This document shows, piece by piece, positions 9,601-64,000 of a stretch of DNA of 64,000 nt. Each line of letters opens with the position of its first letter. Position 1 is the first letter of the stretch. A program made the position numbers and the translations under genes. Under the pieces are notes generated by a model. The model searched no databases and was not told the DNA's origin. It worked only from the letters and a program-made list of their open reading frames with translations. Source of the DNA: Haplodiscus bocki (Eukaryota); assembly GCA_965655095.1 (NCBI GenBank), contig OZ296649.1:133672001-133736000 (forward strand), given 5' to 3'.

Positions 9601-9869
9601 GGCTGCATGACAACAACCGAACAATTGTAAAGATTGATGGGCAATTTTCACCTTTACCGACAACGATGGAATTCAAGACCGAGCCTTCACTGAATAATGG
9701 CAGTGATGTTACTGAAGTCCCATTATCTCCAGTCTTCACCTCGCTCGACGATTTCAATACGAAGCCCACCGAACTGAATGAACCCTACTCAGCCAAAAGC
9801 CACGAAACAAACGAACCGGAACCGAACGCAAAGTCAAATTTACCAAACTGGTTTTCTCTGAAGAAAGGC

Positions 9870-20765: not shown

Positions 20766-20769
20766 CAAA

Positions 20770-28273: not shown

Positions 28274-28876
28274 CTTCAACAATCTCAAACATATATTATC
28301 CAAAAACTTCAATTCTGCGATTTCTATTAAAAGTCATCCCCACGTACTGTCTGAGCCTCAAAACTGGCAACCCAACTCTCCCCTGGGCATCCCCCTCTCC
28401 CCTCCGCCGGTATAGAATTTGGAATTTATTGAAAATGTAAAAAAAATCTTTCAACGTTTTTTTCACATAATTGTACGCTTTCCCGAACTCAACTGATAGA
28501 AATGTGAGTGAGTAGAACAAGAGTAGACTCCCAGTTTGGGACTGATAATTTTTTAGCCCGATTCTTATTAGGAACCGCAGAGTACTACTGATCAACAATA
28601 ATCACACCCGACTTTTTCATTTCAAATTGATCCATGCAGCACTTTAGTGCATGTAAAAAGTAAAGATACCTTTGAGACCAAGAAAAGAATCAAAATTCTT
28701 TAGCTTTGCAAAGTCTTCTCTTTTTTTTTGTTGGGAAAAAAGCGTTACCTAAAGGCGAACTGCTTGTCCCATGCAAGAACAGAATGTAGTTTGAGATTCA
28801 TTTGAAGATGTTCGGCTCTTCTTAGCAATGGGCTCAAATGAAAACCACCAAATAGCCTGGAAAAATTATAACTTGC

Positions 28877-29033
28877 CTTAAGAAGTCGTTTTTTGGCGGC
28901 TGAGCATTTGCTGAATAGAGATGCCATCATGTGAGGGGGCACTAGCTGATCAGCTTGGCCACTTATAAACAGCGAGGGTATCTGCACGTGTCCGATTTTC
29001 TCGCAGCTTGCAAACTTGTTTTTGTAGAGCATG
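28877..29033 (-). CDS. ABHD13: ABHD13 coding exon 6; PSLFISGQADQLVPP (catalytic Asp)
   Basis: Acceptor ttttcag|C, non-canonical donor AAG|gcaagt, phases consistent (2 in, 0 out). Confidence 0.92.
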
Positions 29034-29799
29034 CTGAAAAACGCAACTGCTTTTGAACGACACTCAATAACGCAGGTTGAGCGCCTAAGCTCGAATGTTT
29101 CACAATTGCATACTGAAAACTAAATGTACGATACTGCTAAATAGCGCCTGTCTGCCTAAATCTTCGGAAAACTTAGACATACGAACAAAATAGGGGAATA
29201 ACAACATAAGGAAATTGTTTTTAGTCGGCGCTTTGCTTCAGTAATAAGGCGAGTATTACAATAACTATTTTTTCACTGCTAAAAAGCCCAAAAGTTTTAG
29301 TGATATTTTATGATCCCCTCTAAACGAACGGTGGTCGAAAGGGCGCTGGTGGTGTCGAGGGTAGGACAAAAGCAAAAGTCTTTTAGGCCATTGATATGGG
29401 TGCTATAGTCAGCGAGTCCAAAAACCCTTTTCAGAAAATGTTTTTTTATTATGCTTTTCAACCCCCCCCCCCAACCCTGGTTTATGATACCCCTTGTATG
29501 TTTTAAGCCTTGCGGTGCACTATGATTTGAGCAGGGCTTGATAATATTTTCATTATATCAATCAAGCAGTTAGTAAATTCATGGGTAAAACGGTGAATTC
29601 CCACCATGCCAAACTTTCTAAGCATCGATAAGTGATTAAATTGATGAGGCAAATTTCGACACCTTGAATAGTTTCGTAAAATTACTGTAGCTTCGAAAAT
29701 CGATGACCTTCCGATGCCATGAATGGTCACCTTGATAACCGACATTGCAAAACCGATGCTAACCACCACCCCCCGCCGTTGGTTTCGTCTGGTGCTAAC

Positions 29800-30082
29800 C
29801 GAGGAATGTAGTTGAATCCAGGTATCTGGAACATGACCTCGGCCACGTCAGCGATATGGGTGAAAGTGTTCTCTACAATCAGTATCACCACGCCCAGAGG
29901 ATGAGGGGCGAAGTGAATGGGGTCCAGGCCATTTGTGCCTGATGCCGCAGAAGTGGGGATATTATCAAAGGAGCCCTTGTCCTCTTCTGTCAATCCTTTG
30001 GAAGAGGCCGCGTGAATGGCTACTGCTCCACCCAACGAGCGCCCAAAAAGAATGATTTTGTCGGGATTCAAGTCCGTATTCT
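29800..30082 (-). CDS. ABHD13: ABHD13 coding exon 5; nucleophile elbow GRSLGG and VENTF
   Basis: Acceptor gtttcag|AG, donor CG|gttagc, phases 1 in and 2 out. Confidence 0.95.
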
Positions 30083-30733
30083 CTGAAACATGTCTCAGCA
30101 ACTGAATGATCTCGACGGCGAATTTCCTTCACCTGTTCCTTTTTCCAACAAGGTCAAGACAGATATATGCCAATATAAAAATTGTACTTGACTGACGCGA
30201 AGATTATGACATCAGACAATAGAAATGTCAGCGAAAATTATAGACCGAACTTGATTGTACATTCGATTGAAATTTAATGTACTCTCGATTAGATTAACCG
30301 CCACTCGATTGTCACCAATAATTTGTTGAGAATTTTATACCACCTAAATTACCGCCAAATTCGCATATCCACCTCCGCCGCAATTTTTTTGCTACTAGTT
30401 CCAAAAACTTTTGAGTACTTGTCAAAATGATGTTTCTCATATCAAGAGATGAACAAAAGATTTTTCAACAAGAGAAAATACTAACTTTGTTGAAATTTAA
30501 AAATATAATCCACTTTTTCATGAAGATGACGTATGGTCCTTTTGAGATTTTGCTCAGTTTCATTTCTTTTTATTCAACTTCATCGATATTTTTATCAATA
30601 ATACTGCATTAAAGTTAAGGGCTGGAATTTGTTTTCCGCCATGATATGGCTTGTAAGGACTGTGGCAGTAAATCGAGCATTTTATACCATTTTTTTCAGT
30701 ATTAGAACCTCATTTCATGGATGAAGAACTCAC

Positions 30734-31289: not shown

Positions 31290-32950
31290 GTCTCTATTCT
31301 TCACTTCTTTCCAGCTCGTATGCACTCAGTTCAACTTCTTCCTTTCATTTCTGATATTTCATCTCAAATCGGCTTTTCTGATTATGTGACCGAAGAATTG
31401 CAGTAGTCTTTTTTCGTTGGTTTTCAAAATCATTGGGATTCTCTTCTGGGTTTTGATTGGCACAAAATTTAATTCTGTGGCAGTGTATGAGATGCTTTCC
31501 ACTTTTCTGAGGTATAAAAATTCACAGCTATATATTGGTTTCATTCTCTCAGCATTGAGCGTCCACGTTTCACATGCATATAGAACCGTCTACATATAAC
31601 AAAAAACTCTGAATCTTGTCCCGAAGGCAACTTTTTAAAGTCAGGATGTTGCTCAAGGTATTGAAAGCAACTTTTGATTGGGCTATTCGACAATTGATTT
31701 CCCTTGCGAATCTCCTCTCTAATGCTACAAGAGTCCCAACATATTTGAAGGTGTCTGTTTGATTATTCTTGGGGTTATTCAGTAGTAGTGAACATTGTTC
31801 AGGTTCCTTTGCTAACACCAAAACTTCGGTTTTACTCCTGCAGGTGTTTTGCGTATCGCAGGCTTCATTTAGAGTTGAGATTAGCAGCAGATTTTTTTCC
31901 GAGTCTGCAATGACAGCGGTGTCATCAGCCCAACTCAGGTTGTTTTTGTTCATTCCACCAATGCTGACTCCTTCTAAGTTCTGAATGGACAGCGTTATTT
32001 TCTATCTGACGGTGTTATAGAGAAGCGGTGACCTTCTTGTCTTGTCGAACTGTGAATGCAACATCCAATTTATTACTTTCTTTGCCCCCCCCCCCCAGTT
32101 CAACTGTTGCCTTTTGGGGCCAATACACAAATTGAAGAAGACGGAAGTCTTTATCATCGACACCAACTTCATTAATGGCATCCAAGATACAACTGTGTCG
32201 CTTCGTATCAAGCGCTTTATTGAAATCTACGACGCAAACGAAAAGTATTTGTTGGTGCTTCAACAGTCTCTCAGTTACAACTCTCAGACAGAAAATGGTA
32301 CCGCGATTACCTCTATTTGAAAAGCTGAACTGTTTTTTGACGATTGAGAAATCCGCTTTCTGATTTCTTTCATTAAAAGTTCTCAAAAGTTGAGAACGCG
32401 GCTCGTCAGGGAAATTGTCCTGAATTTTTCGCATTTGGGGGCCCCGGCTTTCTCCGGAAGTGCAACGAATAAACACTGACATCTCTTCCGGTGTCTCTCC
32501 AGCTTCTTAAATCCGGTAGACAAGGTGAAGCCCCAAGTCAAGACCTACATCTTCCGGGGCTTTTAGCGCTTCATCTGGAAAGCCGTCAAGTTTCAATGCT
32601 GTTTTTCTCAGCTGTCATTACCAAGCAAGCTTCTTCACTCAATACTGGTGCTCATAATAGAGTCACATCAAAACTGAAGGGTTTCGAATTACTTCTGCCC
32701 GGATCATTGTACAGATTTTTTGTGTTTTGTAGCCAGCAGTCTTTGACTTCACTGCTTTTGACTATATTTGTTCCGTTTTCGTCTCTTATCGTGTTTGTTA
32801 TGCGGGAGTTGCGTTTCCTTCCTGAAAGATCTTAGACTCACCTATATGCTTGGATTGACAAGATTGTTTTCAATTTCACATTTCTGGCCGAGTTATTCGG
32901 CGTGAGTTTCGTTGCATTTTTCACATGTTTGACAATTACAAGATATTCTA
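31290..32950 (-). mobile_element. decayed RTE-like LINE in ABHD13 intron 3, sense to the host gene
   Basis: RGTIFCLRVVTER, VDFNKALD, WADDTAVIA, FKYVG, EINCRIAQSKVAF, ETWTL, LQFFGHIIRK, in shifting frames. Confidence 0.85.
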
Positions 32951-36299: not shown

Positions 36300-39200
36300 T
36301 GGTCTGCCGACCCGCATTTTTTTAAGACGAGCCAAAAATCCAAATACCAAAATGCAGTCGAAATGTGAAAGTGGAAGTCCGGACGAAATCAAGAAAATGG
36401 TATGAGTGAGAAGGGAGATACAAGCGTGTCTTCACGAAGTTGGAAAGATGTCTTGATCAGTTGATTGCCAGCCCTATAGCCAACACCTACGCGCTATGTG
36501 GAGCGGAGGCATGTCTATCAAGTCTCACCATGAAATACAATGTGATTTAGAAATTGGATTCTGAAATAGTTTTGGACACTAACGAGGAGCAGGATATTCC
36601 GAACGAAATGGAAGCTCAGAGCAAAATCAAACCGTCTATAACCGTGAAAATATCCCGATTAGCAGCAATTATTGCTAATTTTGGGTCAATCCACACCAAT
36701 GAAACTAGCGGAACATCAACTTCATCACGCCAAGATTATTCCCAAAGCAAGTTAAGATTACCAAAGTTACAACTCCCAACTTTTAGTGAGTCTTACACAG
36801 ATTGAAAATTCTTCTTCGACTTATTTAGGGCTTCAGTGGACTCCAACAGCCAGCTTAATGGATCAGAAAATTGAATTATCTAAAGGCATGTTTGAAAGGT
36901 GATGCAGCAAAATTGGTTAGTTCAATGTCAGTAACAGATATTAACTACAGAAATGCTCTCGATTTGATCATCCAACGTTATCAAAACAAGCGCAGCATTG
37001 TCATAGCAAATTTTCAGGCTTTATGTGCACAACCAGTCCTGAGAAAAGTATCAGCAGTTTGCCTCCGACGAATTTTGCAGACAAAGGAAAATTTGCAGGC
37101 GCTTGAGGAACTTGGCCAACTCGTAGAGCACTGGGATGCAGTGTTAGTGTAATGGGTGTCTGAGAGACCTGATGTAAAGTCTCGCAAGCAGTGAGAATTC
37201 AGCCACCCTGCAACACGTGGGACCAATTGTCCAAATTTTTGGACACAAGAAGCATTGAACTCGAAAAGGTTTCCGATATAGCGGTTCCCCCCATCCACAA
37301 AAAACAGCGGAGCTTCCTAATGGTCGGATCCAAGCTTACTCGACGTCTCGTGTCTGCACTAAAATTTCAGACACAGAGCACAAGCTTCTCCATTGTCCTC
37401 AGTTCGGAAAAATGGAACTGTCTGAAAAACTCAACTTCATCAAAGATTAAAAACAGCGTAGTTGAACTGTCTACAAGTCGGTCATTCAGGACAGACAGGC
37501 CCATCGAAGCACACGTTTCGTGAGTGCAATTTAAACACCCACACAATGTTGTATCGAAGTAAACCGCCTTTCACTCAAGCACCTTCAAAATTGACATCAG
37601 ATGAAATGAAAATGAAGGTCAAAGCTGAAGAAGCACCCGACACGCTCACAAACGATGTTACACTGGGTCACTGAACTGCAGCACCCTACACCAATGCCGT
37701 TCTCCTGGCCACAGCCTTCGTGAAAGGGCAAGATTCAAGAGGTAATGACATACAATTACGAGCATTGCTTGATTCAGAATCCCAAGCAAGCTTTATTACT
37801 GACTGCAAGGCGAACTCCCTAAAGCTACAAAGGCGAACAGGTCAAGCCACCATCACTGGATTGGGGGCTCATAAGAGATTTGAAAAAACGAGTGGGATTG
37901 ATCCTGTTATTCTTAATGCGGACATTGAAGCCATTTTGTACATACTCCCAAAAATTACAAGTTGCGTTCCCACTGAGCAACTTGACATCTCAGAGATACG
38001 TCATAATCACAATCTTCAATTAGCCGACCCCGAATTCAGAATACCAGCAGGAATTGACATCCTTTGGGGAGCTGAAGAAGTTATGCTAGAAAGCAGGATT
38101 AAGGACACGGAAGTGATCATCAGAAAGACATTGTTTGGTTGGATTGTGTCAGGGTGAGTCATGCATACTTACGGGTATCACAAAGACTTTTCCACAAATG
38201 AGGCATCACTCAATGCTTTTGCGAGCAGAGAACAACGAACAAATTTGGGAGCTTGAACAGAAAGCATCTGACAGAAGAGGAAGCTCAATGGGAAAATCAT
38301 TTCATTTTAATCTCACTACAAAACGCGAGGACGATGGGCGAGTTTCAAATGCCCTTTAAGGATGACTAAAAACAGCTGGCATTCATCACAAGCCTAGCAC
38401 TAAAGCGGTTTCTCAGCCTTGAAACAACTCCGAAAGGAAACCACGCTGCACCAAGAATATTCCAAATTCGTTAAAGAGTTCACTGATGTTGGGCATTTGG
38501 AAATCGTTCTTAAAGCAGATCTCCTCAATCCTCGCCCTCCTCTACCTACCACATCACTGTGTGCAAAAGGGTGATATTACCACGACAAAGTTCCATGTAG
38601 TGCGTGTAGTATTTGATGACAGCGCGAACGCGACAAGAATATCCTTGAATGATAGCTTGTTGGTTGGTCCAAAGATACAAGATGACCTTTTATCACATAG
38701 TTATACGATTTCGGTTCTTCAAAATTCCAATTAGCGCAGAAATCGGAGAGATGTATAGGCCGATAGAATTGGACAATAATCAAAACGACTTTCACCGGAT
38801 ACTCTGGAGAGAATTGCCGTCCCAACCCATTGAAACATACAGAAGGACTCGCGTTACAGCTACTCATATCACGCAATTCGATGTCGGCAGGAGTCTGCAA
38901 GGCAAGAGAACATCACGCTTCAAACCAAGGATGTTATCGACAGACATTTTTATGTCGATGATATCCTCACTGGTGCTGCATCCAAAACTAAAGCGAGAAA
39001 ACTCCACAGATCCATGTTTGACACTCTCAAGCAAGCATTCTTTTGAGCTCAGGAAACGGACATGTAGCAATCCATCTATTGTATTGGACCTTCCGCATAA
39101 ATACAGAGAGGCAAATGAAGACTTAAAAATACTAGATGTGGACCATACAATCAAGACGCTCAAGACGTTGGGCATAACGTGGAATCCATCCTGCGATGTA

Positions 39201-39480
39201 TCCAGTTTTCACCTATCTCAGCTTGAAGAAGATTTGGGGAGGATTAACATGATTACAAAGCGCAGAATGCTCAGTAAAAATGCGAAGACTTTCGATCCAC
39301 TGAGGTCGTTGTCGCCTGTCAGAGTAAAGTTGAAGTTAAAGTGGAGTGTAGCAAACATGTTCAGCCATTATTCACTGGGATGAACCACTGGCCCATAATA
39401 TTCGTGATTCTTATCTTCAATGGAGGGCTACACTATTCACGGACCAAACTAAGCCAAATTCACGGAAAGTATCTCCCCTA
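36300..39480 (+). mobile_element. decayed BEL/Pao retrotransposon gag-pol, truncated before RNase H end and integrase
   Basis: LPKLQLPTFS and YLKACLKGDAAKLV (DUF1759-type gag), RALLDSESQASFIT (protease), YLPHHCV...RVVFDDSA, HFYVDD (RT), KTLGITWNP, ITKRRMLS...FDPL (Pao A17 region). Confidence 0.92.
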
Positions 39481-44290: not shown

Positions 44291-45329
44291 TCACGTGGTG
44301 GCAGAAGACTCTTCGCTGAAGGAATCGGCAGCTGTATGCAGCATAATGTGACTGTGGTTGCTCTGAGACTGTGGAGGTTGGGCCTGATGCGACGGGGATT
44401 CCGATGACGTCATCTGTGTTGCATACAAGGTGTCAGGTATTGAGAAACTGGATCCTCTGATGATACGTGCGTCACGTGAAAACACTTCAGGTGGAAACGC
44501 AGTGTCGTGGAAACACCTTGGATTTGCTACTACATGTTGGCTGTGATGAACATTAATATTGGTGTCCTCTTCTGCTGAGGAAGCATGGCTGCTGTTTGAA
44601 GTCCAATGATGGTAGATAGAATAAGAGTTAGTACTAGTAGAATTTGAAGATATTTGGGTTAGCGGTAATTGAGTTGATGTAGTAGTAATACAAGTGTTTG
44701 TAGAAGCAGCAAAAGGAGCAGAGTCTAATTCATGCATCATCCTTAAAGGACAAGACCTCAAAAGTTGCTCTGTCCCGCAAACAGGCTCTCCTTCTATAGA
44801 AAAGGACACCGGTTTATGACTGGCACACTTAGGACTGGCTCCACTACGTTTATTTAAATCGCACACACTTCCTGTAGACATGGACATATTAATTTGTTGA
44901 CTTTCTGAAGCACCTGGGGAAGACGTGGACCACTCAGAAGACTTGGTTAGAGTGATGTCTAGGGAGCCCGCGGATATTTTTCTGTGAGAAGTATCACTGC
45001 ATAAGTTCAAAGTTGCAGCTCTACTTGAGCCAGAACTGTATTTCTTGTTCTGGCCCACAAATTTACCGGCCACAGCACTTCTATTTCGAAACAATTTTGA
45101 AGCACCTGAGCGCAGAGATAACGAGAATTTGTTGCCCATAGAGGGCGTGTTGGATCCGGGGCTGAATTTGGACAGATCTGAGACGGAGGATGAGGTTGTA
45201 TCTGGGTTAGAAGCAGAGTTACTCAAAGTCCTTCTCACATCTTCTTTGTTGTTGCAAGTATTTCCACCCCCGAGAACCTGCATCAGTCCTCCCCCGTGTT
45301 TTGTGAGAAAATTTCCAACGCCTCCAAAC
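44291..45329 (-). CDS. terminal coding exon of an unidentified gene, Ser/Thr-rich and probably disordered
   Basis: About 1.04 kb of stop-free frame after a good acceptor tggtttttcag|GTTTGGAGGC (FGGVGNFLTKHGG...), with higher GC, ending in TGA. Upstream exons were not found in this window. Confidence 0.7.
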
Positions 45330-48830: not shown

Positions 48831-50327
48831 CAGGGTACTGACGGCTCTGCAAAAAATATCAGCAAGTCATGGGGAATTTGGAGAAAAGTAAAAAAAAACA
48901 CGACTACTGAATTGAATACTTTCCTTTCGAAAATTTTTTTTCGAGGGACAATATTACGTTCGAATGACCTTCTCCAAGTAGGAATATACCAATTGAGAGA
49001 CTCATGGAAAAAATAAAGTCGTTATTTTTGGGGATGAGTACGAAAGTAGAGAAGAATCCGACGTGAAGTAGCAATTTTTCGTCAATTCCTTCTAGTGACT
49101 TTCCACAGGGACCAAACAGCTGAATGAGACGTTAAAGGAAAAAATCTAGCCGTCATTTTCGGAAAAAAAATAGATCCAAATTTCAAGACAAATCAATTCT
49201 GTCTGCACTTTCTGTCAATGTCGATTCATCAGAACTACAATGCCCGTAACTTAATCTAAAACGGTTATTTATAAAAAATCACCTTTTACGGTCAGGTAAC
49301 TGTTCATCCAGAGTCGTCCAGGCAAAAATCTAGCTAGTAGTTTGGTAGAAAAATGAATTTGATGATCAAGGAGAATCATGTGTACATGCAACTTTTGGCG
49401 TTTATTCGGCCAATCAGGCCTGCGGTACAAAGAGAATAACCCACGATACTTTTACAGAATGACCTACGGTGAGAAAAAAGGCAGAAGTGTCATGTACAAA
49501 ATGCAATCAGCAGAAACAAGTCAATTTTTTCATTGAAAATCAGTTTCCACTACGAATTTGAAAACTTCTGAAAAGTCGAAGATTATCGGACCATAAGTTT
49601 ATATCTTTTTTTTCATCATGTGAAGTTGAAAAAGGGTTGAGTTGTTTTGTTCAGGTAGAAAAAGGGAGCAATTTCGGAAAACAGGACTTTCAGGTAAAAA
49701 ACCTCGCGAAAAACGAAAAAACCCTGTTTACAATTTCTGGGGTGTTTCTCATTGAATTTAAGTTTCAGTCCTTTACTAGTTGTAAGAGTTGGAATATTTT
49801 CTAGTGGCTATCTTCAGTGCGGGGTGTGAGGAAAAATCTCTTGCAAAAATTGGAGAAATTATTCCAAGATTCGAATCAACTATTCCATAGCTATCAAGAA
49901 TTCTCTGTGCCTTTACATTATTTCTTTTACAGATTCATAATTTAATCCCTATATTTTTTCTCATCAGGCCGATAGTAGAATTCAATGAAAGTTTAATTTC
50001 AATATAATTTTGTTGCATTTAATTTCAATGCGGATATTGGGTATGTATTACTTTTGCCCTGGTTTTATTGGTTGCTGGTTGCTCCGGAGATTAGTTTTTC
50101 GTGTAGAAGAGGATCCGTTGTCAACAAATAATCAATATATTTCTTTGTAGCGCCAAGATTTAATGGTTCTATAATCACTAAGATTAAGATCATGCACTCC
50201 CGCATTACCAAAATTTAATAAAAAAAAACACTTAAAACATTACACTAGCCGACTTTCAATTTGCTTCTCCGGCTCTAATTTTAATTGTCTGATTTATTAT
50301 CCATCCGTGCGTGCAGGTTAGTTTTTC

Positions 50328-52442
50328 TTAAACTCGGTGCATTTGTCCATTGAGGTGTGCATATGTAGGTGCACTTTCTTCTACTCTTGTTTCCATCAGT
50401 TGAGAGTCGGGTAGTATTAGGCTTTTATTCCGCCAAAGAAAATATTCATCAAATTGCACATGATCCAAGTGTTGAAATTCTACCACCATGATCGGTTTGA
50501 GAGGAAGCTTTTGTTTATCAGGCTTGTGAAAGAAGGGCTGGAACTTGTGAAGTTTATTGTAGCGAGGTAGTGCAAACATTAGTCCCAAATGTAGTAGTGC
50601 ACTAAGGATGAATACTGCATTTGCGATAACCAAATAAGTTTTCCACGAAATATAGTCATTGAATTGTTTCTCAAATGAGGGCCACAGCATGATTAATTTC
50701 TAAGCAATAGTCTCAGCTATTTGTTGAATACTCTTTTTGTAACCATATTGTTGTTGGGCTTGAAGTTCCAGTTTGACAGATTTGGGTAGTTTCATATTAG
50801 CTTCCACTTTTGTGTTGTAGTATGGTAGTTCATTTACCTGAAAAAATTGGCCAATGGTTTGGGAAGTCCCACATCCAGTTTCACTGATGGAACTTTTGCA
50901 CATTAAGATAGATCAGATCGGATTCTGATATTTTATCTAGTTAACTTTTTACCACATTCTAGTGTTATTAAACAGATTCTACATCCTTCGACTGTTTTTG
51001 AACCTGCCAGGGTTGTAGCGTCTATATAGTTTTCTTTGATTTCGAAGTTTGCCTGTGCTGGAGTTATGAGCCATATTCCATATCTTAGATTTGTTGCTTT
51101 CACCTTTAGTGAGACTCGGACTGTATCACAAACTTCTAGCGCATCCATAATGTTTCCAAAACAAAAAGTTGAGAGACATGAAGAGTCTTTACTTTCTGTC
51201 GCTAAGGTTTCCTGACAAATTCTATATTTGCTTGAACCAATGTAATTGTCGACTTGGTCTCTTGTTACTAGAGAAGTTTCCATCACGTTTTCCGATACTG
51301 CCAAGTATTCTGCTTCCATAGTCCACTTAACTGCCATGTCTTCGTCCCTTTGGGGTTGAGGTAGCACAATTGCTTGGTACACTGTGAATGCTGTTTGTCG
51401 TGATGCAAATGGCATTGCCATTGTCATCAAAAGACCATTATCAAGGGTAAATACATCCAATAAAGGGCATGATTCCTAATATGCCAAACTTCCTGTTTTG
51501 GAATGGCCAAGGTAAGTCAGTTATCGGACTTCTCTTATAAGTCGTCAACCACTTTCAAGAATTTTCAAAGGATTTCTTAGGTAATAGGGACAAAGGAACG
51601 TATTTTGAAAGTAGAGAGGGAATAGCATTCATAATACTCATCTGGAACGCAAACAGCTGCTCGATAGGCTTTGACGTTGCAATAGATTAGGGAAAGCCAA
51701 GAAGAAACTGTATCCAAACTGAAGTTCATCTGTTGTCTTGTATAAAGTAGTTGATCACAATTGCGCATGTCGTGGATCTTCTCCGGGAAGTGCTCCTCGA
51801 TCTTTTGCCAGTTCTCTTTTGAATTTCGATAAATTGATTTTGGATTTCGTGAAGGAGGGCTAAATCTTTTGAGACACGGAAAAATTTCTCATCGGTTGTG
51901 TTCGCAAGTTGTCGCCAATAGCTATGGCGTATTCTCGATATTTTTAGCATTTGTTCGGGCTTTTTCTTGACATGATCCAAAAATACCCAAGATACCACAA
52001 TCATCCGAGGCACCAAACATGATGCCGGTTCCGAATAATCCTACGGCGCCTGCTACTGCTAAAGGTACTGCTCTTTTAGACAGTTGTTTTTTCTTGATTA
52101 CAGTGACCTTCAAGGATACTTCGTGTTTTATTTTGTTCAGGTCTTCGTCGGCGAACGAGATATGCTTTTTTGTTTCTTTTAGAAGCCAATCTACTTTGAA
52201 GTCGTTTTCAATTGTGTTTGTGAATTTAAAATAACATCTATGGGTCGGCATTGGCCATATGCTGCAATTCTGTTGCTACTTTGTCTAGTTGGATGTCAAC
52301 TTTTGGGTGGAGGAGTAAGAATTGGACATTTACAAAATTTTCTGCAAAGTAATTTTGTCCCGTCGTGGGAAAATACCCCTCGCTCGAGACTACCTTTGCC
52401 ATCTGCTACCGCTATTATTAAAAACAGAAAAAGTAGAGTCAT
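50328..52442 (-). pseudogene. env: near full-length class I viral fusion (env/F-like) glycoprotein gene, frameshifted; terminal unit of the array
   Basis: Signal-like MTLLFLFLIIAVA; basic cleavage site KKKQLSKR|AVPLAVAGAVGLFGTGIMFG (fusion peptide); heptad-rich region; Cys-rich region; TM WKTYLVIANAVFILSALLHLGLMFAL; cytoplasmic tail to the stop at 50328. About 700 codons when frames are joined. Confidence 0.85.
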
Positions 52443-55400
52443 TGTGGAAGGCTCTGCGATTTGTATTTGGCTGATTTTCTATTGAAGCTGTAGTGGAAGT
52501 TGGATTAATCACTAGCTCTTTCTCTTTGCAGTACAGTTAAAATACAAATGATTTGGGGGGTATACTTGCACCTTAAATCGTTTAAAGTTCGTCTTCTAGA
52601 TAGTCCAACAGTTCTTCTAGTTTGTCTTTGAACGTTGATTCTAACTTCAATGATTTGGAGTGTTTGCCCAGGGTATCATAGAGTCTGTTGACTTCAATTG
52701 GGTCAATGTCAATTTCCATATAGTAGGGCTCATTGTGGGGTTTGAAGACTCTCTTTCGAATGAGGGGAGAACATCCACATTTACTTTCTGTCTGAAGTTT
52801 ATTGTAGCGAGGTAGTGCAAACAATAGTCCCAAATGTAGTAGTGCACTAAGGATGAATACTGCATTTGCGATAACCAAATAAGTTTTCCACGAAATATAG
52901 TCATTGAATTGTTTCTCAAATGAGGGCCACAGCATGATTAATTTCTAAGCAATAGTCTCAGCTATTTGTTGAATACTCTTTTTGTAACCATATTGTTGTT
53001 GGGCTTGAAGTTCCAGTTTGACAGATTTGGGTAGTTTCATATTAGCTTCCACTTTTGTGTTGTAGTATGGTAGTTCATTTACCTGAATAAATTGGCCAAT
53101 GGTTTGGGAAGCCCCACATCCAGTTTCACTGATGGAACTTTTGCACATTAAGATAGATCAGATCGGATTCTGATATTTTATCTAGTTAACTTTTTACCAC
53201 ATTCTAGTGTTATTAAACAGATTCTACATCCTTCGACCGTTTTTGAACCTGCCTGTTTGTGAATTTAAAATAACATCTATGGGTCGGCATTGGCCATATG
53301 CTGCAATTCTGTTGCTACTTTGTCTAGTTGGATGTCAACTTTTGGGTGGAGGAGTAAGAATTGGACATTTACAAAACTTTCTGCCAAAAATAATTTTGTC
53401 CCGTCGTGGGAAAATACCCCTCGCTCCAGACTACCTTTGCCATCTGCTACCGCTATTATTAAAAACAGAAAAAGTAGAGTCATTGTGGAAGGCTTTGAGA
53501 TTTGTATTTGGCTGATTTTCTATTGAAGCTGTAGTGGAAGTTGGATTAATCACTAGCTCTTTCTCTTTGCAGTAGTTAAAATACAAATGATTTGGGGGGT
53601 ATACTTGCACCTTAAATCGTTTAAAGTTCGTCTTCTAGATAGTCCAACAGTTCTTCTAGTTTGTCTTTGAACGTTGATTCTAACTTCAATGATTTGGAGT
53701 GTTTGCCCAGGGTATCATAGAGTCTGTTGACTTCAATTGGGTCAATGTCAATTTCCATATAGTAGGGCTCATTGTGGGGTTTGAAGACTCTCTTTCGAAT
53801 GAGGGGAGAACATCCACATTTACTTTCTGTCTGAAGTTTATTGTAGCGAGGTAGTGCAAACAATAGTCCCAAATGTAGTAGTGCACTAAGGATGAATACT
53901 GCATTTGCGATAACCAAATAAGTTTTCCACGAAATATAGTCATTGAATTGTTTCTCAAATGAGGGCCACAGCATGATTAATTTCTAAGCAATAGTCTCAG
54001 CTATTTGTTGAATACTCTTTTTGTAACCATATTGTTGTTTGGCTTGAAGTTCCAGTTTGACAGATTTGGGTAGTTTCATATTAGGTTCCACTTTTGTGTT
54101 GTAGTATGGTAGTTCATTTACCTGAATAAATTGGCCAATGGTTTGGGAAGCCCCACATCCAGTTTCACTGATGGAACTTTTGCACATTAAGATAGATCAG
54201 ATCGGATTCTGATATTTTATCTAGTTAACTTTTTACCACATTCTAGTGTTATTAAACAGATTCTACATCCTTCGACCGTTTTTGAACCTGCCTGTTTGTG
54301 AATTTAAAATAACATCTATGGGTTGGCATTGGCCATATGCTGCAATTCTGTTGCTACTTTGTCTAGTTGGATGTCAACTTTTGGGTGGAGGAGTAAGAAT
54401 TGGACATTTACAAAACTTTCTGCCAAAAATAATTTTGTCCCGTCGTGGGAAAATACCCCTCGCTCCAGACTACCTTTGCCATCTGCTACCGCTATTATTA
54501 AAAACAGAAAAAGTAGAGTCATTGTGGAAGGCTTTGCGATTTGTATTTGGCTGATTTTCTATTGAAGCTGTAGTGGAAGTTGGATTAATCACTAGCTCTT
54601 TCTCTTTGCAGTAGTTAAAATACAAATGATTTGGGGGGTATACTTGCACATTAAATCGTTTAAAGTTCGTCTTCTAGATAGTCCAACAGTTCTTCTAGTT
54701 TGTCTTTGAACGTTGATTCTAACTTCAATGATTTGGAGTGTTTGCCCAGGGTATCATAGAGTCTGTTGAATTCAATTGGGTCAATGTCAATTTCCGTTTA
54801 GTAGGGCTCATTGTGGGGTTTGAAGACTCTCTTTCGAATGAGGGGAGAACATCCACATTTACTTTCTGTCTGAAGTTTATTGTAGCGAGGTAGTGCAAAC
54901 ATTAGTCCCAAATGTAGTAGTGCACTAAGGATGAATACTGCATTTGCGATAACCAAATAAGTTTTCCACGAAATATAGTCATTGAATTGTTTCTCAAATG
55001 AGGGCCACAGCATGATTAATTTCTAAGCAATAGTCTCAGCTATTTGTCGAATACTCTTTTTGTAACCATATTGTTGTTGGGCTTGAAGTTCCAGTTTGAC
55101 AGATTTGGGTAGTTTCATATTAGCTTCCACTTTTGTGTTGTAGTATGGTAGTTCATTTACCTGAATAAATTGGCCAATGGTTTGGGAAGCCCCACATCCA
55201 GTTTCACTGATGGAACTTTTGCACATTAAGATAGATCAGATCGGATTCTGATATTTTATCTAGTTAACTTTTTACCACATTCTAGTGTTATTAAAGAGAT
55301 TCTACATCCTTCGACCGTTTTTGAACCTGCCTGTTTGTGAATTTAAAATAACATCTATGGGTCAGCATTGGCCATATGCTGCAATTCTGTTGCTACTTTG

Positions 55401-55561
55401 TCTAGTTGGATGTCAACTTTTGGGTGGAGGAGTAAGAATTGGACATTTACAAAACTTTCTGCCAAAAATAATTTTGTCCCGTCGTGGGAAAATACCCCTC
55501 GCTCGAGACTACCTTTGCCATCTGCTACCTCTATTATTAAAAACAGAAAAAGTAGAGTCAT
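52443..55561 (-). repeat. env array type A: 3 units of 1039-1041 bp (N-terminus plus TM region, middle deleted)
   Basis: env ATGs at 53483, 54522 and 55561. The internal junction gaacctgcc|tgtttgtgaa removes ~1.2 kb including the fusion peptide. The unit junction is YNKLQ|TESKCGC. Confidence 0.95.
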
Positions 55562-58500
55562 TGTGGAAGGCTTTGCGATTTGTATTTGGCTGATTTTCTA
55601 TTGAAGCTGTAGTGGAAGTTGGATTAATCACTAGCTCTTTCTCTTTGCAGTACAGTTAAAATACAAATGATTTGGGGGGTATACTTGCACCTTAAATCGT
55701 TTAAAGTTCGTCTTCTAGATAGTCCAACAGTTCTTCTAGTTTGTCTTTGAACGTTGATTCTAACTTCAATGATTTGGAGTGTTTGCCCAGGGTATCATAG
55801 AGTCTGTTGAATTCAATTGGGTCAATGTCAATTTCCATATAGTAGGGCTCATTGTGGGGTTTGAAGACTCTCTTTCGAATGAGGGGAGAACATCCACATT
55901 TACTTTCTGTCGCTAAGGTTTCATGACAAATTCCATATTTGCTTGAACCAATACATTTGTCGACTTGGTCTCTTGTTACTAGAGAAGTTTCCATTAAGTT
56001 TTCCGATACTGCCAGGTATTCTGCTTCCATAGTCCACTTAACTGCCATGTCTTCGTCCCTTTGGGGTTGAGGTAGCACAATTGCTTGGTACACTGTGAAT
56101 GCTGTTTGTCGTGATGCAAATGGCATTGCCATTGTCATCAAAAGACCATTATCAAGGGTAAATACATCCAATAAAGGGCGTGATTCATAATATGCCAAAG
56201 TTCCTGTTTTGGAATGGCAGAGGTAAGTCTGTTATCGGACTTCTCTTATGAGTCGTCAACCACTTTCAAGATTTTTCCAAGGATTTCTTAGGTAATAGGG
56301 ACAAAGGAACGTATTTTGGAAGCAGAGAGGGAATAGCGTTCATTATACTCATCTGGACCGCAAACAGCTGCTCGATAGGCTTTGACGTTGCAATAGATTA
56401 GGGAAAGTCAAGAAGAAACTGTATCCAAATTGAAGTTCATCTGTTGTCTTGTATGAAGTAGTTGATCACAATTGCGCATGTCGTGGATATTCTCCCGGAA
56501 TTGCTTCTCGATCTTTTGCCAGTTCTCTTTTTGAATTTCGATAAATTGATTTATTTTGGATTTCGTGAAGGAGGGCTAAATCTTTTGAGACACGGAAAAA
56601 TTTCTCATCGGTTGTGTTCGCAAGTTGTCGCCAGTAGCTATGATGTATTCTCGATATTTTTAGCATTTGTTCGGGCTTTTTCTTGACATGATCCAAAAAT
56701 ACCCAAGATACCACAATCATCCGAGGCACCAAACATGATGCCGGTTCCGAATAATCCTACGGCACCTGCTACTGCTAAAGGTACTGCTTTTTTAGACAGT
56801 TGTTTTTTCTTGATTACGGTGACCTTCAAGAAGGAGGATACTTCGTGTTTTATTTTGTTCAGGTCTTCGTCGGCGAACGAGATATGCTTTTTTGTTTCTT
56901 TTAGAAGCCAATCTACTTTGAAGTCGTTTTCACTTGTGTTTGTGAATTTAAAATAATATCTATGGGTCGGCATTGGCCATATGCTGCAATTCTGTTGCTA
57001 CTTTGTCTAGTTGGATGTCAACTTTTGGGTAGAGGAGTAAGAATTGGACATTTACAAAATTTTCTGCCAAAAGTAATTTTGTCCCGTCGTGGGAAAATAC
57101 CCCTCGCTCGAGACTACCTTTGCCATCTGCTACCGCTATTATTAAAAACAGAAAAAGTAGAGTCATTGTGGAAGGCTTTGCGATTTGTATTGGGCTGATT
57201 TTCTATTGAAGCTGTAGTGGAAGTGGGATTAATCACTAGCTCTTTCTCTTTGCAGTACAGTTAAAATACAAATGATTTGGGGGGTATACTTGCACCTTAA
57301 ATCGTTTAAAGTTCGTCTTCTAGATAGTCCAACAGTTCTTCTAGTTTGTCTTTGAACGTTGATTCTAACTTCAATGATTTGGAGTGTTTGCCCAGGGTAT
57401 TATAGAGTCTGTTGACTTCAATTGGGTCAATGTCAATTTCCATATAGTAGGGCTCATTGTGGGGTTTGAAGACTCTCTTTCGAATGAGGGGAGAACATCC
57501 ACATTTACTTTCTGTCGCTAAGGTTTCATGACAAATTCCATATTTGCTTGAACCAATACATTTGTCGACTTGGTCTCTTGTTACTAGAGAAGTTTCCATT
57601 AAGTTTTCCGATACTGCCTGGTATTCTGCTTCCATAGTCCACTTAACTGCCATGTCTTCGTCCCTTTGGGGTTGAGGTAGCACAATTGCTTGGTACACTG
57701 TGAATGCTGTTTGTCGTGATGCAAATGGCATTGCCATTGTCATCAAAAGACCATTATCAAGGGTAAATACATCCAATAAAGGGCGTGATTCATAAAATGC
57801 CAAAGTTCCTGTTTTGGAATGGCAGAGGTAAGTCTGTTATCGGACTTCTCTTATGAGTCGTCAACCACTTTCAAGATTTTTCCAAGGATTTCATAGGTAA
57901 TAGGGACAAAGGAACGTATTTTGGAAGCAGAGAGGGAATAGCGTTCATTATACTCATCTGGACCGCAAACAGCTGCTCGATAGGCTTTGACGTTGCAATA
58001 GATTAGGGAAAGTCAAGAAGAAACTGTATCCAAATTGAAGTTCATCTGTTGTCTTGTATGAAGTAGTTGATCACAATTGCGCATGTCGTGGATATTCTCC
58101 CGGAATTGCTTCTCGATCTTTTGCCAGTTCTCTTTTTGAATTTCGATAAATTGATTTATTTTGGATTTCATGAAGGAGGGCTAAATCTTTTGAGACACGG
58201 AAAAATTTCTCATCGGTTGTGTTCGCAAGTTGTCGCCAGTAGCTATGACGTATTCTCGATATTTTTAGCATTTGTTCGGGCTTTTTCTTGACATGATCCA
58301 AAAATACCCAAGATACCACAATCATCCGAGGCACCAAACATGATGCCGGTTCCGAATAATCCTACGGCGCCTGCTACTGCTAAAGGTACTGCTTTTTTAG
58401 ACAGTTGTTTTTTCCTGATTACGGTGACCTTCAAGAAGGAGGATACTTCGTGTTTTATTTTGTTCAGGTCTTCGTCGGCGAACGAGATATGCTTTTTTGT

Positions 58501-60376
58501 TTCTTTTAGAAGCCAATCTACTTTGAAGTCGTTTTCACTTGTGTTTGTGAATTTAAAATAATATCTATGGGTCGGCATTGGCCATATGCTGCAATTCTGT
58601 TGCTACTTTGTCTAGTTGGATGTCAACTTTTGGGTAGAGGAGTAAGAATTGGACATTTACAAAATTTTCTGCCAAAAGTAATTTTGTCCCGTCGTGGGAA
58701 AATACCCCTCGCTCGAGACTACCTTTGCCATCTGCTACCGCTATTATTAAAAACAGAAAAAGTAGAGTCATTGTGGAAGGCTTTGCGATTTGTATTGGGC
58801 TGATTTTCTATTGAAGCTGTAGTGGAAGTTGGATTAATCACTAGCTCTTTCTCTTTGCAGTACAGTTAAAATACAAATGATTTGGGGGGTATACTTGCAC
58901 CTTAAATCGTTTAAAGTTCGTCTTCTAGATAGTCCAACGGTTCTTCTAGTTTGTCTTTGAACGTTGATTCTAACTTCAATGATTTGGAGTGTTTGCCCAG
59001 GGTATTATAGAGTCTGTTGACTTCAATTGGGTCAATGTCAATTTCCATATAGTAGGGCTCATTGTGGGGTTTGAAGACTCTCTTTCGAATGAGGGGAGAA
59101 CATCCACATTTACTTTCTGTCGCTAAGGTTTCATGACAAATTCCATATTTGCTTGAACCAATACATTTGTCGACTTGGTCTCTTGTTACTAGAGAAGTTT
59201 CCATTAAGTTTTCCGATACTGCCTGGTATTCTGCTTCCATAGTCCACTTAACTGCCATGTCTTCGTCCCTTTGGGGTTGAGGTAGCACAATTGCTTGGTA
59301 CACTGTGAATGCTGTTTGTCGTGATGCAAATGGCATTGCCATTGTCATCAAAAGACCATTATCAAGGGTAAATACATCCAATAAAGGGCGTGATTCATAA
59401 TATGCCAAAGTTCCTGTTTTGGAATGGCAGAGGTAAGTCTGTTATCGGACTTCTCTTATGAGTCGTCAACCACTTTCAAGATTTTTCCAAGGATTTCTTA
59501 GGTAATAGGGACAAAGGAACGTATTTTGGAAGCAGAGAGGGAATAGCGTTCATTATACTCATCTGGACCGCAAACAGCTGCTCGATAGGCTTTGACGTTG
59601 CAATAGATTAGGGAAAGTCAAGAAGAAACTGTATCCAAATTGAAGTTCATCTGTTGTCTTGTATGAAGTAGTTGATCACAATTGCGCATGTCGTGGATAT
59701 TCTCCCGGAATTGCTTCTCGATCTTTTGCCAGTTCTCTTTTTGAATTTCGATAAATTGATTTATTTTGGATTTCGTGAAGGAGGGCTAAATCTTTTGAGA
59801 CACGGAAAAATTTCTCATCGGTTGTGTTCGCAAGTTGTCGCCAGTAGCTATGACGTATTCTCGATATTTTTAGCATTTGTTCGGGCTTTTTCTTGACATG
59901 ATCCAAAAATACCCAAGATACCACAATCATCCGAGGCACCAAACATGATGCCGGTTCCGAATAATCCTACGGCGCCTGCTACTGCTAAAGGTACTGCTTT
60001 TTTAAACAGTTGTTTTTTCTTGATTACGGTGACCTTCAAGAAGGAGGATACTTCGTGTTTTATTTTGTTCAGGTCTTCGTCGGCGAACGAGATATGCTTT
60101 TTTGTTTCTTTTAGAAGCCAATCTACTTTGAAGACGTTTTCACTTGTGTTTGTGAATTTAAAATAACATCTATGGGTCGGCATTGGCCATATGCTGCAAT
60201 TCTGTTGCTATTTTGTCTAGTTGGATGTCAACTTTTGGGTAGAGGAGTAAGAATTGGATATTTACAAAAATTTCTGCCAAAAGTAATTTTGTCCCGTCAA
60301 GGGAAAATACTCCTCGCTCGAGACTACCTTTGCCATCTGCTACCGCTACTATTAAAAACAGAAAAAGTAGAGTCAT
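55562..60376 (-). repeat. env array type B: 3 units of 1605 bp (N-terminus, fusion peptide and middle; no TM)
   Basis: ATGs at 57166, 58771 and 60376, exactly 1605 apart. The unit junction is ETLA-TESK|CGC. Confidence 0.95.
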
Positions 60377-63300
60377 TGTGGAAGGCTTTGGGATTTGTAT
60401 TTGGCTGATTTTCTTTTGAAGCTGTAGTGGAAGTTGGATTAATCACTAGCTCTTTCTTTTTGCAGTACAGTTAAAACACAAATGATTTGGGGGGTATACT
60501 TGCACCTTAAATCGTTTAAAGTTCGTCTTCTAGATAGTCCAACAGTTCTTCTACTTTGTCTTTGAGCGTTGATTCTAACTTCAATGATTTGGAGTGTTTG
60601 CCCAAGGTATCATAGAGTCTGTTGACTTCAATTGGGTCAATGTCAATTTCCATATAGTAGGGCTCATTGTGGCGTTCGAAGACTCTCTTTCGAACGAGGG
60701 GAGAACATCCAAATTTACTTTCTGTCGCTAAGGTTTCATGACAAATTCCATATTTGCTTCAACCAATACATTTGTCGACTTGGTCTCTCGTTACTAGAGA
60801 AGTTTCCATCAAGTTTTCGGATACTGCCAAGTATTCTGCTTCCATAGTCCACTTAACTGCCATGTCTTCGTCCCTTTGGGGTTGAGGTAGCACAATTGCT
60901 TGGTACACTGTGAATGCTGTTTGTCGTGATGCAAATGGCATTGCCATTGTCATCAAAAGACCATTATCAAGGGTAAATACATCCAATAAAGGGCGTGATT
61001 CATAATATGCCAAAGTTCCTGTTTTGGAATGGCAAATGTAAGTCTGTTATCGGACTTCTCTTATGAGTCGTCGACCACTTTCAAGATTTTTCCAAGGATT
61101 TCTCAGGTAATAGGGACAAAGGAACGTAATTTGAAAGTAGAGAGGGAATAGCGTTCATTATACTCATCTGGAACGCAAACAGCTGCTCGATAGGCTTTGA
61201 CGTTGCAATAGATTAGGGAAAGCCAAGAAGAAACTGTATCCAAATTGAAGTTCATCTGTTGTCTTGTATAAAGTAGTTGATCACAGTTGCGCATGTCGTG
61301 GATATTCTCCCGGAATTGTTTCTCGATCTTTTGCAAGTTCTCTTTTTGAATTTCGATAAATTGATTTTGGATTTCGTGTGAAGGAGGGCTAAATCTTTTG
61401 AGACACGGAAAAATTTCTCATCGGTTGTGTTCGCAAGTTGTCGCCAATAGCTATGGTGTATTCTCGATATTTTTCAGCATTTGTTCGGGCTTTTTCTTGA
61501 CATGATCCAAAGATACCCAAGATACCACAAACATCCGATGCACCAAACATGATGCCGGTTCCGAATAATCCTACGGCGCATGCTACTGCTAAAGGTACTG
61601 CTCTTTTAGACAGTTGTTTTTTCTTGATTTCAGTGACCTTCAAGAAGGAGGCTACTTCGTGTTTTATTTTGTTCAGGTCTTCGTCGGCGAACGAGATTTG
61701 CTTTTTCGTTTCTTTTAGAAGCCAATCTACTTTGAAGTCGTTTTGACTTGTGTTTGTGAAATTAAGATAACATCTATAGGTCAGCATTCCGGCATTCGCC
61801 ACATGCTGTAATTCTGTTGCTACTTTGTCTAGGCTTTCCGTTAGTTGGATGTCAACTTTTTGGTAGGGGAGTAAGAATTGGACATTTACAAATTTTTCTG
61901 CCAAAAGTATTTTTGTCCCTTCGTGGGAAAATACTCCTCGCTCAACACTACCTTTGCCATCTGCTACCGCTACTACTAAAAACAGAAAAAGTAGAGTCAT
62001 TGTGGAAGGCTTTGGGATTTTTATTTGGCTGATTTTCTTTTGAAGCTGTAGTGGAAGTTGGATTATTCACTAGCTTTTTCTTTTTGCAGTACAGTTAAAA
62101 CAAATGATTTGGGGGGTATACTTGCACCTTAAATCGTTTAAAGTTCGTCTTCTAGATAGTCCAACAGTTCTTCTACTTTGTCTTTGAACGTTGATTCTAA
62201 CTTCAATGATTTGGAGTGTTTGCCCAAGGTATCATAGAGTCTGTTGACTTCAATTGGGTCAATGTCAATTTCCATATAGTAGGGCTCATTGTGGGGTTCG
62301 AAGACTCTCTTTCGAATGAGGGGAGAACATCCAAATTTACTTTCTGTCGCTAAGGTTTCATGACAAATTCTATATTTGCTTGAACCAATACATTTGTCGA
62401 CTTGGTCTCTCGTTACTAGAGAAGTTTCCATCAAGTTTTCCGATACTGCCAGGTATTCTGCTTCCATAGTCCACTTAACTGCCATGTCTTCGTCCCTTTG
62501 GGGTTGAGGTAGCACAATTGCTTGGTACACTGTGAATGCTGTTTGTCGTGATGCAAATGGCATTGCCATTGTCATCAAAAGACCATTATCAAGGGTAAAT
62601 ACATCCAATAAAGGGTATGATTCCTAATATGCCAAACTTCCTGTTTTGGAATGGCCAAGGTAAGTCAGTCATCGGACTTCTCTTATGAGTCGTCAACCAC
62701 TTTCAAGATTTTTCAAAGGATTTCTTAGGTAATAGGGACAAAGGAACGTCTTTTGAAAGTAGAGAGGGAATAGCATTCATAATACTCATCTGGAACGCAA
62801 ACAGCTGCTCGATAGGCTTTGACGTTGCAATAGATTAGGGAAAGCCAAGAAGAAACTGTATCCAAATTGAAGTTCATCTGTTGTCTTGTATAAAGTAGTT
62901 GATCACAGTTGCGCATGTCGTGGATATTCTCCCGGAATTGTTTCTCGATCTTTTGCAAGTTCTCTTTTTGAATTTCGATAAATTGATTTTGGATTTCGTG
63001 AAGGAGGACTAAATCTTTTGAGACACGGAAAAATTTCTCATCGGTTGTGTTCGCAAGTTGTCGCCAATAGCTATGGTGTATTCTCGATATTTTTCAGCAT
63101 TTGTTCGGGCTTTTTCTTGACATGATCCAAAGATACCCAAGATACCACAAACATCCGATGCACCAAACATGATGCCGGTTCCGAATAATCCTACGGCGCA
63201 TGCTACTGCTAAAGGTACTGCTCTTTTAGACAGTTGTTTTTTCTTGATTTCAGTGACCTTCAAGAAGGAGGCTACTTCGTGTTTTATTTTGTTCAGGTCT

Positions 63301-64000
63301 TCGTCGGCGAACGAGATTTGCTTTTTCGTTTCTTTTAGAAGCCAATCTACTTTGAAGTCGTTTTGACTTGTGTTTGTGAAATTAAGATAACATCTATAGG
63401 TCAGCATTCCGGCATTCGCCACATGCTGTAATTCTGTTGCTACTTTGTCTAGGCTTTCCGTTAGTTGGATGTCAACTTTTTGGTAGGGGAGTAAGAATTG
63501 GACATTTACAAATTTTTCTGCCAAAAGTATTTTTGTCCCTTCGTGGGAAAATACTCCTCGCTCAACACTACCTTTGCCATCTGCTACCGCTACTACTAAA
63601 AACAGAAAAAGTAGAGTCATTGTGGAAGGCTTTGGGATTTTTATTTGGCTGATTTTCTTTTGAAGCTGTAGTGGAAGTTGGATTATTCACTAGCTCTTTC
63701 TTTTTGCAGTACAGTTAAAACACAAATGATTTGGGGGGTATACTTGCACCTTAAATCGTTTAAAGTTCGTCTTCTAGATAGTCCAACAGTTCTTCTACTT
63801 TGTCTTTGAACGTTGATTCTAACTTCAAGGATTTGGAGTGTTTGCCCAAGGTATCATAGAGTCTGTTGACTTCAATTGGGTCAATGTCAATTTCCATATA
63901 GTAGGGCTCATTGTGGGGTTCGAAGACTCTCTTTCGAATGAGGGGAGAACATCCAAATTTACTTTCTGTCGCTAAGGTTTCATGACAAATTCTATATTTG
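60377..64000 (-). repeat. env array type C: 2 full units (~1620-1624 bp) plus a partial one running off the window
   Basis: ATGs at 62000 and 63620 open identical 203-aa ORFs that retain QLTESLDK and ANAGMLTY, which are deleted in the A, B and terminal units. Confidence 0.95.

Follow-up and report, generated by a model that had tools for sequence, protein, structure and literature searches.

The 64,000-nucleotide stretch analysed here (the window) contains part of a tandem array of env pieces. The whole array spans about 51 kb, comprises about 30 head-to-tail copies, all of them broken, and sits within a single decayed element of Ty3/gypsy type, 59.7 kb long, that has two LTRs, a perfect 5-bp TSD, a PBS, a PPT and a broken gag-pol. 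The features are as follows; the window-extended numbering runs on beyond the end of the window.

44291..45329, minus strand: likely host exon, Ser-rich, with a phase-2 acceptor
49722..49726, no strand: TSD of 5 bp, CCCTG on the plus strand, twin at window-extended 109,381-109,385
49727..50244, minus strand: 3' LTR
50245..50258, minus strand: polypurine-tract-like segment ahead of the 3' LTR, its ending identical in relatives
50328..52442, minus strand: near-full-length terminal env copy, with 9 frameshifting indels and 6 stops relative to a natural unbroken relative
52443..55561, minus strand: three units of 1039-1041 bp, each with an upstream piece, the env start, an internal deletion and the env C-terminal part with the transmembrane segment
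52582..52781, minus strand: 3' tail of ORF-b, a small upstream ORF, inside the upstream piece of the units
55562..63620, minus strand: five units of 1605-1624 bp, each with the ORF-b tail, a spacer and the N-terminal ~430 env codons, every one broken
63621..64000, minus strand: beginning of one more unit; the array runs on beyond the window
Window-extended 108,854-109,380 (contig coordinates about 133,780,854-133,781,380): 5' LTR, partner of the 3' LTR

Beyond the far end of the array, at window-extended position 101,369, the element continues with broken macro, IN, RH, RT and gag parts, followed by the 5' LTR. The LTRs have TG...CA ends, save for one end that reads AA in place of CA, and the pair differs at 39 of 511 columns (7.6%); 5-bp TSDs were also found in relatives. 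The order gag, then PR-RT-RNase H-IN is present, with matches to RVT_1 (5e-18) and RT_RNaseH (1.5e-14) in a relative. Integrase_H2C2 was matched at 5.8e-14 in the array-bearing element, which retains RVT_1 and integrase-domain remnants in Pfam; the protease match was weak (0.005), and Pfam gave no match to the BEL/Pao peptidase A17. From these domain families and their order the element is assigned to the Ty3/gypsy type. The window had given the impression that the array is free of gag, RT, IN and LTR sequences between its units. This is correct between the units in the window, but the array is bracketed by the 3' LTR within the window and by gag-pol and the 5' LTR beyond it.

Nine env start codons lie head to tail on the minus strand of the window at spacings of exactly 1041, 1039, 1039, 1605, 1605, 1605, 1624 and 1620 bp, and a tenth piece is partial. 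The original prediction of at least ten head-to-tail units with these spacings, in an array running past the window, is borne out. It had also described the units as env pieces with only about 350 bp of upstream sequence; the env pieces are there, but the upstream piece holds the ORF-b tail, and outside the window two units of 4.5 kb add parts of the integrase-end/macro region and of the JmjC-like gene. The 1039-1041-bp units contain the 1.6-kb junction and are therefore derived from a 1.6-kb unit. TRF did not report the array because its period limit was 500.

A signal peptide, a basic cleavage site, a fusion peptide, heptads and a transmembrane helix were recognised by reading the env sequence together with a structural model. 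The fold was predicted on a natural unbroken env relative, for which the alignment-based model reached a pLDDT of 76.6; a single-sequence fold gave only 34.8 and was not used. The top PDB structure matches of the model were RSV F (4e-7) and PIV5 F, with low TM values (0.16-0.28 by query), and baculovirus F was matched at 1e-18. Sequence searches of the PDB with env gave weak coiled-coil or fusion-peptide matches only. Pfam had no match for the unbroken query env and nothing meaningful for six fragments from the window, and four of 13 env homologs scanned passed the Baculo_F cut-off. The class I F-type fusogen layout claimed for the units thus holds on the unbroken relative, both in its layout and in its predicted fold. 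The proposed origin of the units, from the F-type env of an enveloped LTR retroelement, is borne out.

The array had been called young. Among 26 aligned copies the divergence has a median of 5.8% and a maximum of 8.4%, about the same as that of the LTR pair, so that neither "young" nor "newborn" is fitting; recent similarity is limited to some neighbouring copies (0.1-1.7%). The farther apart two copies lie in the array, the more they differ (Spearman 0.69), and neighbours cluster in the tree. Alternate units can be close (10 and 12 differ by 0.9%, 11 and 13 by 0.1%), two extra blocks of 2.9 kb are 99.1% alike, and dimer blocks as well as 4.5-kb blocks have been duplicated again. The overlap at the junctions is 0-2 bp. 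A microhomology of 13 bp at the point where units join was considered and rejected: in the 4.5-kb units, which hold the upstream sequence un-joined, the overlap is about 2 bp, and the longer match stems from the junction having been carried over into the 1039-bp units.

Six frameshifts are common to all 26 aligned copies. The frames opened by the env start codons are 37-203 codons long, and 24 of the 27 start codons found give at most 90 codons. Variants among the copies comprise 185 non-synonymous or stop changes and 60 synonymous ones, on 968 and 268 sites, respectively (pN/pS 0.85, p=0.28); along the element lineage, to the natural relative, dN/dS is 0.12. A neutral satellite had been one of three options offered for the array, and the later variation among copies is indeed neutral. 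The amplified half of env carries 8 frameshifts in 1.2 kb compared with 12 in 7.1 kb for the rest of the element, an excess in a Poisson test both for the 8 (p=0.0015) and for the 6 shared ones (p=0.02). Homogenisation may have spread the frameshifts; they therefore date the common ancestor of the present copies and not necessarily the first duplication.

The original prediction further held that env had been selectively amplified. This is not borne out by the family itself, in which pol, gag-pol, macro-env and the accessory region are duplicated at other loci. Of 34 relatives, 4 carry internal duplications:

pol, 1.7 kb, about 10 times
gag-pol, 3.55 kb, at least 5 times
macro-env, 2.85 kb, twice
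accessory region, 2.4 kb, twice

At five further loci, pieces of env or JmjC were duplicated. Control stretches of 20 kb contained kb-scale arrays in 6 of 40 cases (amounting to 7% of bases; compared with the family, Fisher p=0.75), although two of the six are complex or low-complexity and the background is patchy, the two pooled control sets giving 6/20 (14-15% of bases) and 0/20. The array is ordinary for this genome and bears no sign of host use. It is the longest among those examined, with about 30 units compared with about 10 in the next, so that an additional drive or a hot spot at this place is conceivable.

The explanation that we consider very probable is that about 30 broken env pieces were amplified, likely neutrally, inside one decayed Ty3/gypsy-type element, by an end-joining-type duplication and subsequent unequal exchange. 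An env-containing piece would first have been duplicated in tandem within the element, the junctions pointing to end joining as the repair pathway. Growth would then have proceeded by unequal exchange or gene conversion between neighbouring copies. The common ancestor of the 26 aligned copies already had the six frameshifts, and variation afterwards was neutral. In this explanation we infer that the array is without function.

Neutral coding evolution leaves any role at the RNA level unaddressed. We considered whether an array born neutrally could now act as a piRNA or siRNA source against related env-bearing elements by read-through of a host intron. A phase-2 donor follows a Rap_GAP exon at window-extended 110,565 and matches the phase-2 acceptor of the likely host exon in the window, so that the element likely lies, in sense orientation, in a host intron of about 65 kb. 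Such an intron would be transcribed, recent relatives exist (LTR pairs 95-99% alike), this is the largest array seen, and there are organisms in which tandem arrays can keep small-RNA cycles going. However, the element is on the strand of the inferred host gene, and read-through would thus yield sense RNA, not the antisense RNA of a piRNA/siRNA source; no inverted repeat was found in the 59.7-kb element. Moreover, identity to the nearest env elsewhere is only about 80%, and pol and gag-pol arrays also occur. We regard this role as improbable.

Still less credible is that the array supplies a truncated Env acting by receptor block or by poisoning of Env trimers. Fv4 and Refrex-1 are co-opted env restriction factors with an open, expressed and selected frame. 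Like them the array holds env-derived sequence with a signal peptide, and signal-peptide starts are retained in the copies scanned. Three adjacent sister units even read 203 codons, including the cleavage site and the fusion-peptide-like segment, with 74% identity to the natural relative over 186 residues. These three are one clade of neighbours, 0.7-1.7% apart, and thus represent one event. In contrast to Fv4 and Refrex-1 the copies are all broken and evolve neutrally, and the shared frameshifts together with the mostly short frames speak against the dominant-negative Env that had been suggested.

An assembly artefact accounting for all or most of the array is just as implausible: no contig spans the array and the copy number of near-identical blocks could be wrong by one or two, but the tree of the units is ordered, with differences of up to 8.4%, and segments present three or four times have, per contig, 2.3-3.8 times the depth of single-copy flanks (X2 238 vs 63-70; X4 39 vs 12-13; X3 84-88 vs 32-37; X1 131 vs 49), rough figures that come from a single study with two samples at most, which may be that of the assembly itself.

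The proposed neutral amplification has parallels among retrotransposon-derived tandem repeats, namely maize CRM1TR/CRM4TR, potato centromeric repeats and Sobo (PMC3648361; review PMC9659126). As described in the excerpts used of these papers, they share with our array kb-scale monomers cut from Ty3/gypsy elements, local homogenisation, a restriction to one or two loci and initiation through illegitimate recombination or end joining, with no long repeats involved. The monomers here are likewise head to tail and locally homogenised; spread to further loci was not seen with the exact unit-junction motif, all 22 matches of which are at the array locus (exact matching lets diverged junctions escape). 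Any part of an element may seed such repeats according to the review excerpt (PMC9659126). Unlike the known cases, which stem mostly from LTR/UTR or gag, the monomer here is env plus an upstream ORF tail, and the array stays inside its own LTR pair, likely in a host intron; the excerpts of PMC3648361 and PMC9659126 contain no env-derived example. The array cleanly documents how a tandem repeat was born within a single retroelement, and the two LTRs serve as a clock by which this can be dated. It also cautions against taking env arrays for defence loci from a single window.

Ty3/gypsy elements with an F-type env (errantiviruses) occur across animals, as stated in the main text of PMC13524379. 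The gag-pol-env order, LTRs and PBS are alike, as are an env with signal peptide, basic cleavage site, hydrophobic fusion-peptide-like segment and transmembrane helix, and an env fold resembling paramyxo-/pneumovirus and baculovirus F. In contrast to these elements, pol of the parent family here ends in a macro-like domain, and the family also has an antisense JmjC-like ORF and two small ORFs between pol and env, and the present copy is dead and internally amplified; the words 'macro', 'jumonji', 'antisense' and 'tandem' are absent from the main text of PMC13524379. A search of the mainly openly accessible literature turned up no account of an env-derived array, nor of JmjC or macro cargo in Ty3/gypsy elements.

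We consider the parent family a better lead than the array. Its JmjC-like ORF scores just below the Pfam JmjC cut-off (23.4 bits, 8.5e-5, cut-off 24), had no match among PDB sequences and has atlas matches of 0.93 to JmjC clusters. A His-Arg-Asp and a later His are visible, which may form a His-x-Asp...His metal triad. Tentatively, the enveloped parent lineage might carry counter-defence enzymes, with an antisense JmjC oxygenase removing repressive methyl marks or modifying silencing factors and a Pol macro domain stripping ADP-ribose, in the manner of large animal viruses. Whether retrotransposons carry enzymes directed at chromatin silencing would become testable in an enveloped retroelement of the F type whose accessory genes (JmjC-like, macro-like, small ORFs) are under selection. 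The antisense JmjC-like gene is under purifying selection, and ORF-b, 118 codons from stop to stop in a relative, has a dN/dS of 0.14-0.49 (26 pairs).

The array of broken env pieces occupies the minus strand from window position 50,548 to 101,369 in window numbering continued into the neighbouring DNA (window-extended), about 51 kb without a gap across the window and six neighbouring stretches. It is the longest seen among those examined. Nine env start codons were found on the minus strand of the window (52,442 to 63,620); their spacings were recounted and are identical to those in the original prediction (1041, 1039, 1039, 1605, 1605, 1605, 1624 and 1620), whose claim that the array continues past the window was also borne out. 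The array consists of:

one terminal near-full env copy
three units of 1039-1041 bp
25 segments of 1.6-kb type, of which the final one is partial and two lie inside 4.5-kb units
two pieces of 0.5 kb

The array is enclosed by an LTR pair:

window 49,727-50,244, 3' LTR
window-extended 108,854-109,380, 5' LTR

The LTRs differ in 39 of 511 aligned columns (7.6%) and carry a perfect 5-bp target duplication on both sides. Priming signals are placed as in the relatives, with a PBS just inside the 5' LTR and a PPT-like tract just inside the 3' LTR. The stretch that separates the 5' LTR from the array holds gag, RT, RNase H, integrase and macro-like sequences, all of them broken. As gag-pol and the LTR pair enclose the array, the reported absence of gag, RT, integrase and LTRs is true between the units and fails for the array as a whole. 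The element measures 59.7 kb, compared with about 11.9-13.2 kb in relatives that retain both LTRs and all their contents.

The array had been described as young. Among 26 copies of the 1.6-kb segment the divergence has a median of 5.8% and a maximum of 8.4%, and the deepest splits roughly match the LTR pair in age, so that growth began early and then continued. Copies farther apart in the array are more divergent (Spearman 0.69), and neighbours cluster in the tree; this order argues against an assembly artefact. In contigs from four public runs (at most two samples of one study, possibly the assembly's own) the per-contig depth over segments with three or four copies was 2.3-3.8 times that of single-copy flanks, and no contig spanning the whole array was found in these runs. 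The array is real, and larger and older than originally reported.

Alternate units are alike (units 10 and 12 are 0.9% apart, units 11 and 13 0.1%), representing a copied dimer, and two extra blocks of 2.9 kb are 99.1% identical. The 1039-bp units contain the 1.6-kb junction and 11 further bases and are late derivatives. The 1.6-kb unit joins with an overlap of about 2 bp; the 1039-bp junction and the internal deletion of that unit each show 0 bp, and a pol array at another locus shows 0-1 bp. All 22 occurrences of the exact junction motif are at the array locus. The short overlaps fit a first duplication by end joining or illegitimate recombination, and later growth may have occurred by unequal exchange or conversion; PMC3648361 argues for the same two steps in the origin of maize CRM-derived repeats.

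We considered whether the array could have a function. A small-RNA role is not favoured, given the probable sense position of the element and the lack of an inverted repeat in a search of its 59.7 kb. The position is suggested by the host gene that probably surrounds it:

L015:6526-9487 (fetched stretch) and window 44,291-45,329, minus strand, Rap_GAP host gene

One of its exons stops 1.2 kb short of the 5' LTR, at a phase-2 donor. On the far side, 4.4 kb past the 3' LTR, a Ser-rich frame starts at a phase-2 acceptor; owing to this match the element likely lies sense within a Rap_GAP intron. Elsewhere in the window, alpha/beta-hydrolase host-gene exons with weak Pfam matches are found at 28,745-30,128 (minus strand), and pieces of other mobile elements, which from the ORF text we take to be non-LTR RT-like, BEL/Pao-like and gypsy-like, at 4,047-4,469, 7,206-9,938, 19,012-20,775, 31,570-32,506 and 37,173-39,383.

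The second proposed function, a truncated dominant-negative Env, does not agree with the coding state. All 26 copies have six frameshifting indels in common; these fall in the first 340 codons, starting near codon 66. A scan found 27 start codons; 24 give at most 90 codons and three, in neighbouring sister units, give 203. Scoring 412 codon columns against each column's commonest codon, with 27 multi-hit codons set aside, yielded 179 non-synonymous, 6 stop and 60 synonymous variants (968 and 268 sites). The resulting pN/pS of 0.85 is not distinguishable from neutral (p=0.28); against a natural relative the same columns give a dN/dS of 0.12. The amplified half is oddly rich in frameshifts: it carries 8 in 1.2 kb, versus 12 in the 7.1 kb made up of gag, pol and the env C-half (p=0.0015 for 8, 0.02 for 6). 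Homogenisation may have spread the shared frameshifts, which would then date the common ancestor of today's copies, not the first duplication.

The parent family was searched for in the same genome. Of 150 candidates in the DNA search, 39 were scored and yielded 47 matches, and 34 related loci lying outside the array were retrieved together with their flanks (the full-rank loci C10:67.15 and C9:13.2 were left out). Their order is LTR, gag, PR/RT/RH/IN, macro-like tail, antisense JmjC-like ORF, two small ORFs, env, LTR. One natural copy, L001, has an unbroken 730-codon env. This env has no Pfam match; 4 of 13 homologs scanned pass the Baculo_F cut-off, and in the atlas it resembles Baculo_F and paramyxovirus F clusters (0.94-0.96, recognition low). 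Its fold model, built with 89 homologs (pLDDT 76.6), matches RSV F (4e-7) and PIV5 F (2e-6) in the PDB with low TM, and baculovirus F (1e-18) among viral models. The predicted structure upholds the F-like call and identifies the family env as the F-type env of enveloped Ty3/gypsy elements, which occur across animals according to PMC13524379.

Several relatives (L001, L029-L030, L051-L052 and L065-L066) have lost gag-pol and retain LTRs and env (4-5.5 kb between LTR starts). Two relatives adjoin long DNA-polymerase-B-like and integrase-like frames (L017:5565-9411 and L024:5485-9687), which resemble Polinton/Maverick-type elements. Another env family, more distant at about 42% identity, has many open frames of 770-820 codons, which suggests recent activity.

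Env had been thought to be amplified selectively. Internal head-to-tail duplications were found in 4 of the 34 relatives and arrays in the flanking DNA of two further ones, and other parts of the element are duplicated as well:

C1:192.0 (L033-L034, L027; G000:C1:192.03-192.06 Mb), RT/RNase H, 1.7 kb, about ten times
C4:39.7, gag-pol, 3.55 kb, at least five times
C575, macro to env, 2.85 kb, twice
C6:78.0, accessory region, 2.4 kb, twice
among five chosen loci, env C-half, 3.3 kb four times and 4.5 kb three times
among the five chosen loci, pol-JmjC-env, 5.9 kb, twice
among the five chosen loci, pol and pol-JmjC blocks, 2.35 and 4.7 kb
among the five chosen loci, partial repeat, 6.2-kb spacing

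The C1:192.0 element is a sister with LTRs 88% alike and units 97-99.6% alike. The five loci were chosen for evenly spaced protein-search matches and so give no rate. Among control 20-kb stretches at round positions, 6 of 20 in one set and 0 of 20 in the other contained arrays (pooled 6/40, 7% of bases); the family did not differ from this background (Fisher p=0.75). Selective amplification of env is therefore not upheld. The control arrays (L099, L100, L103, L104, L108, L110 and neighbours) are kb-scale with 0.6-4.7-kb units, and the genome may be patchily rich in such duplications. Any element part can seed tandem repeats, as the review PMC9659126 concludes.

The array very probably represents neutral amplification within a dead enveloped retroelement of the F type. 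Array and element fall within already known kinds, and the main value of the finding lies in the accessory genes of the parent family:

L038:1460-2356 (G000:C2:80,327,460-80,328,356), antisense, JmjC-like ORF
L014:8413-8841 and L038:2975-3286, macro-like domain at the end of pol, weak Pfam (0.06-0.21)
L001:3966-4322 and 4691-5191, two small ORFs between the JmjC-like gene and env

A literature search of limited coverage found no paper on JmjC-like or macro-like cargo in such elements. The JmjC-like ORF scores just below the Pfam JmjC cut-off (8.5e-5), has an atlas match of 0.93 and 134 matches in its own genome, and its 16 homologs are all close; parts of it are present in the array's two 4.5-kb units. 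Its dN/dS is 0.21-0.55 in 8 of 8 pairs versus 0.85-1.37 for one opposite-strand control frame, and it is under purifying selection. The small ORFs match no family and have a Cys-x-Cys-Cys-like motif in common. One of them, ORF-a, gives a dN/dS of 0.21-1.11 in 12 pairs, weaker than the other, ORF-b, which at 0.14-0.49 in 26 pairs is clearly conserved.
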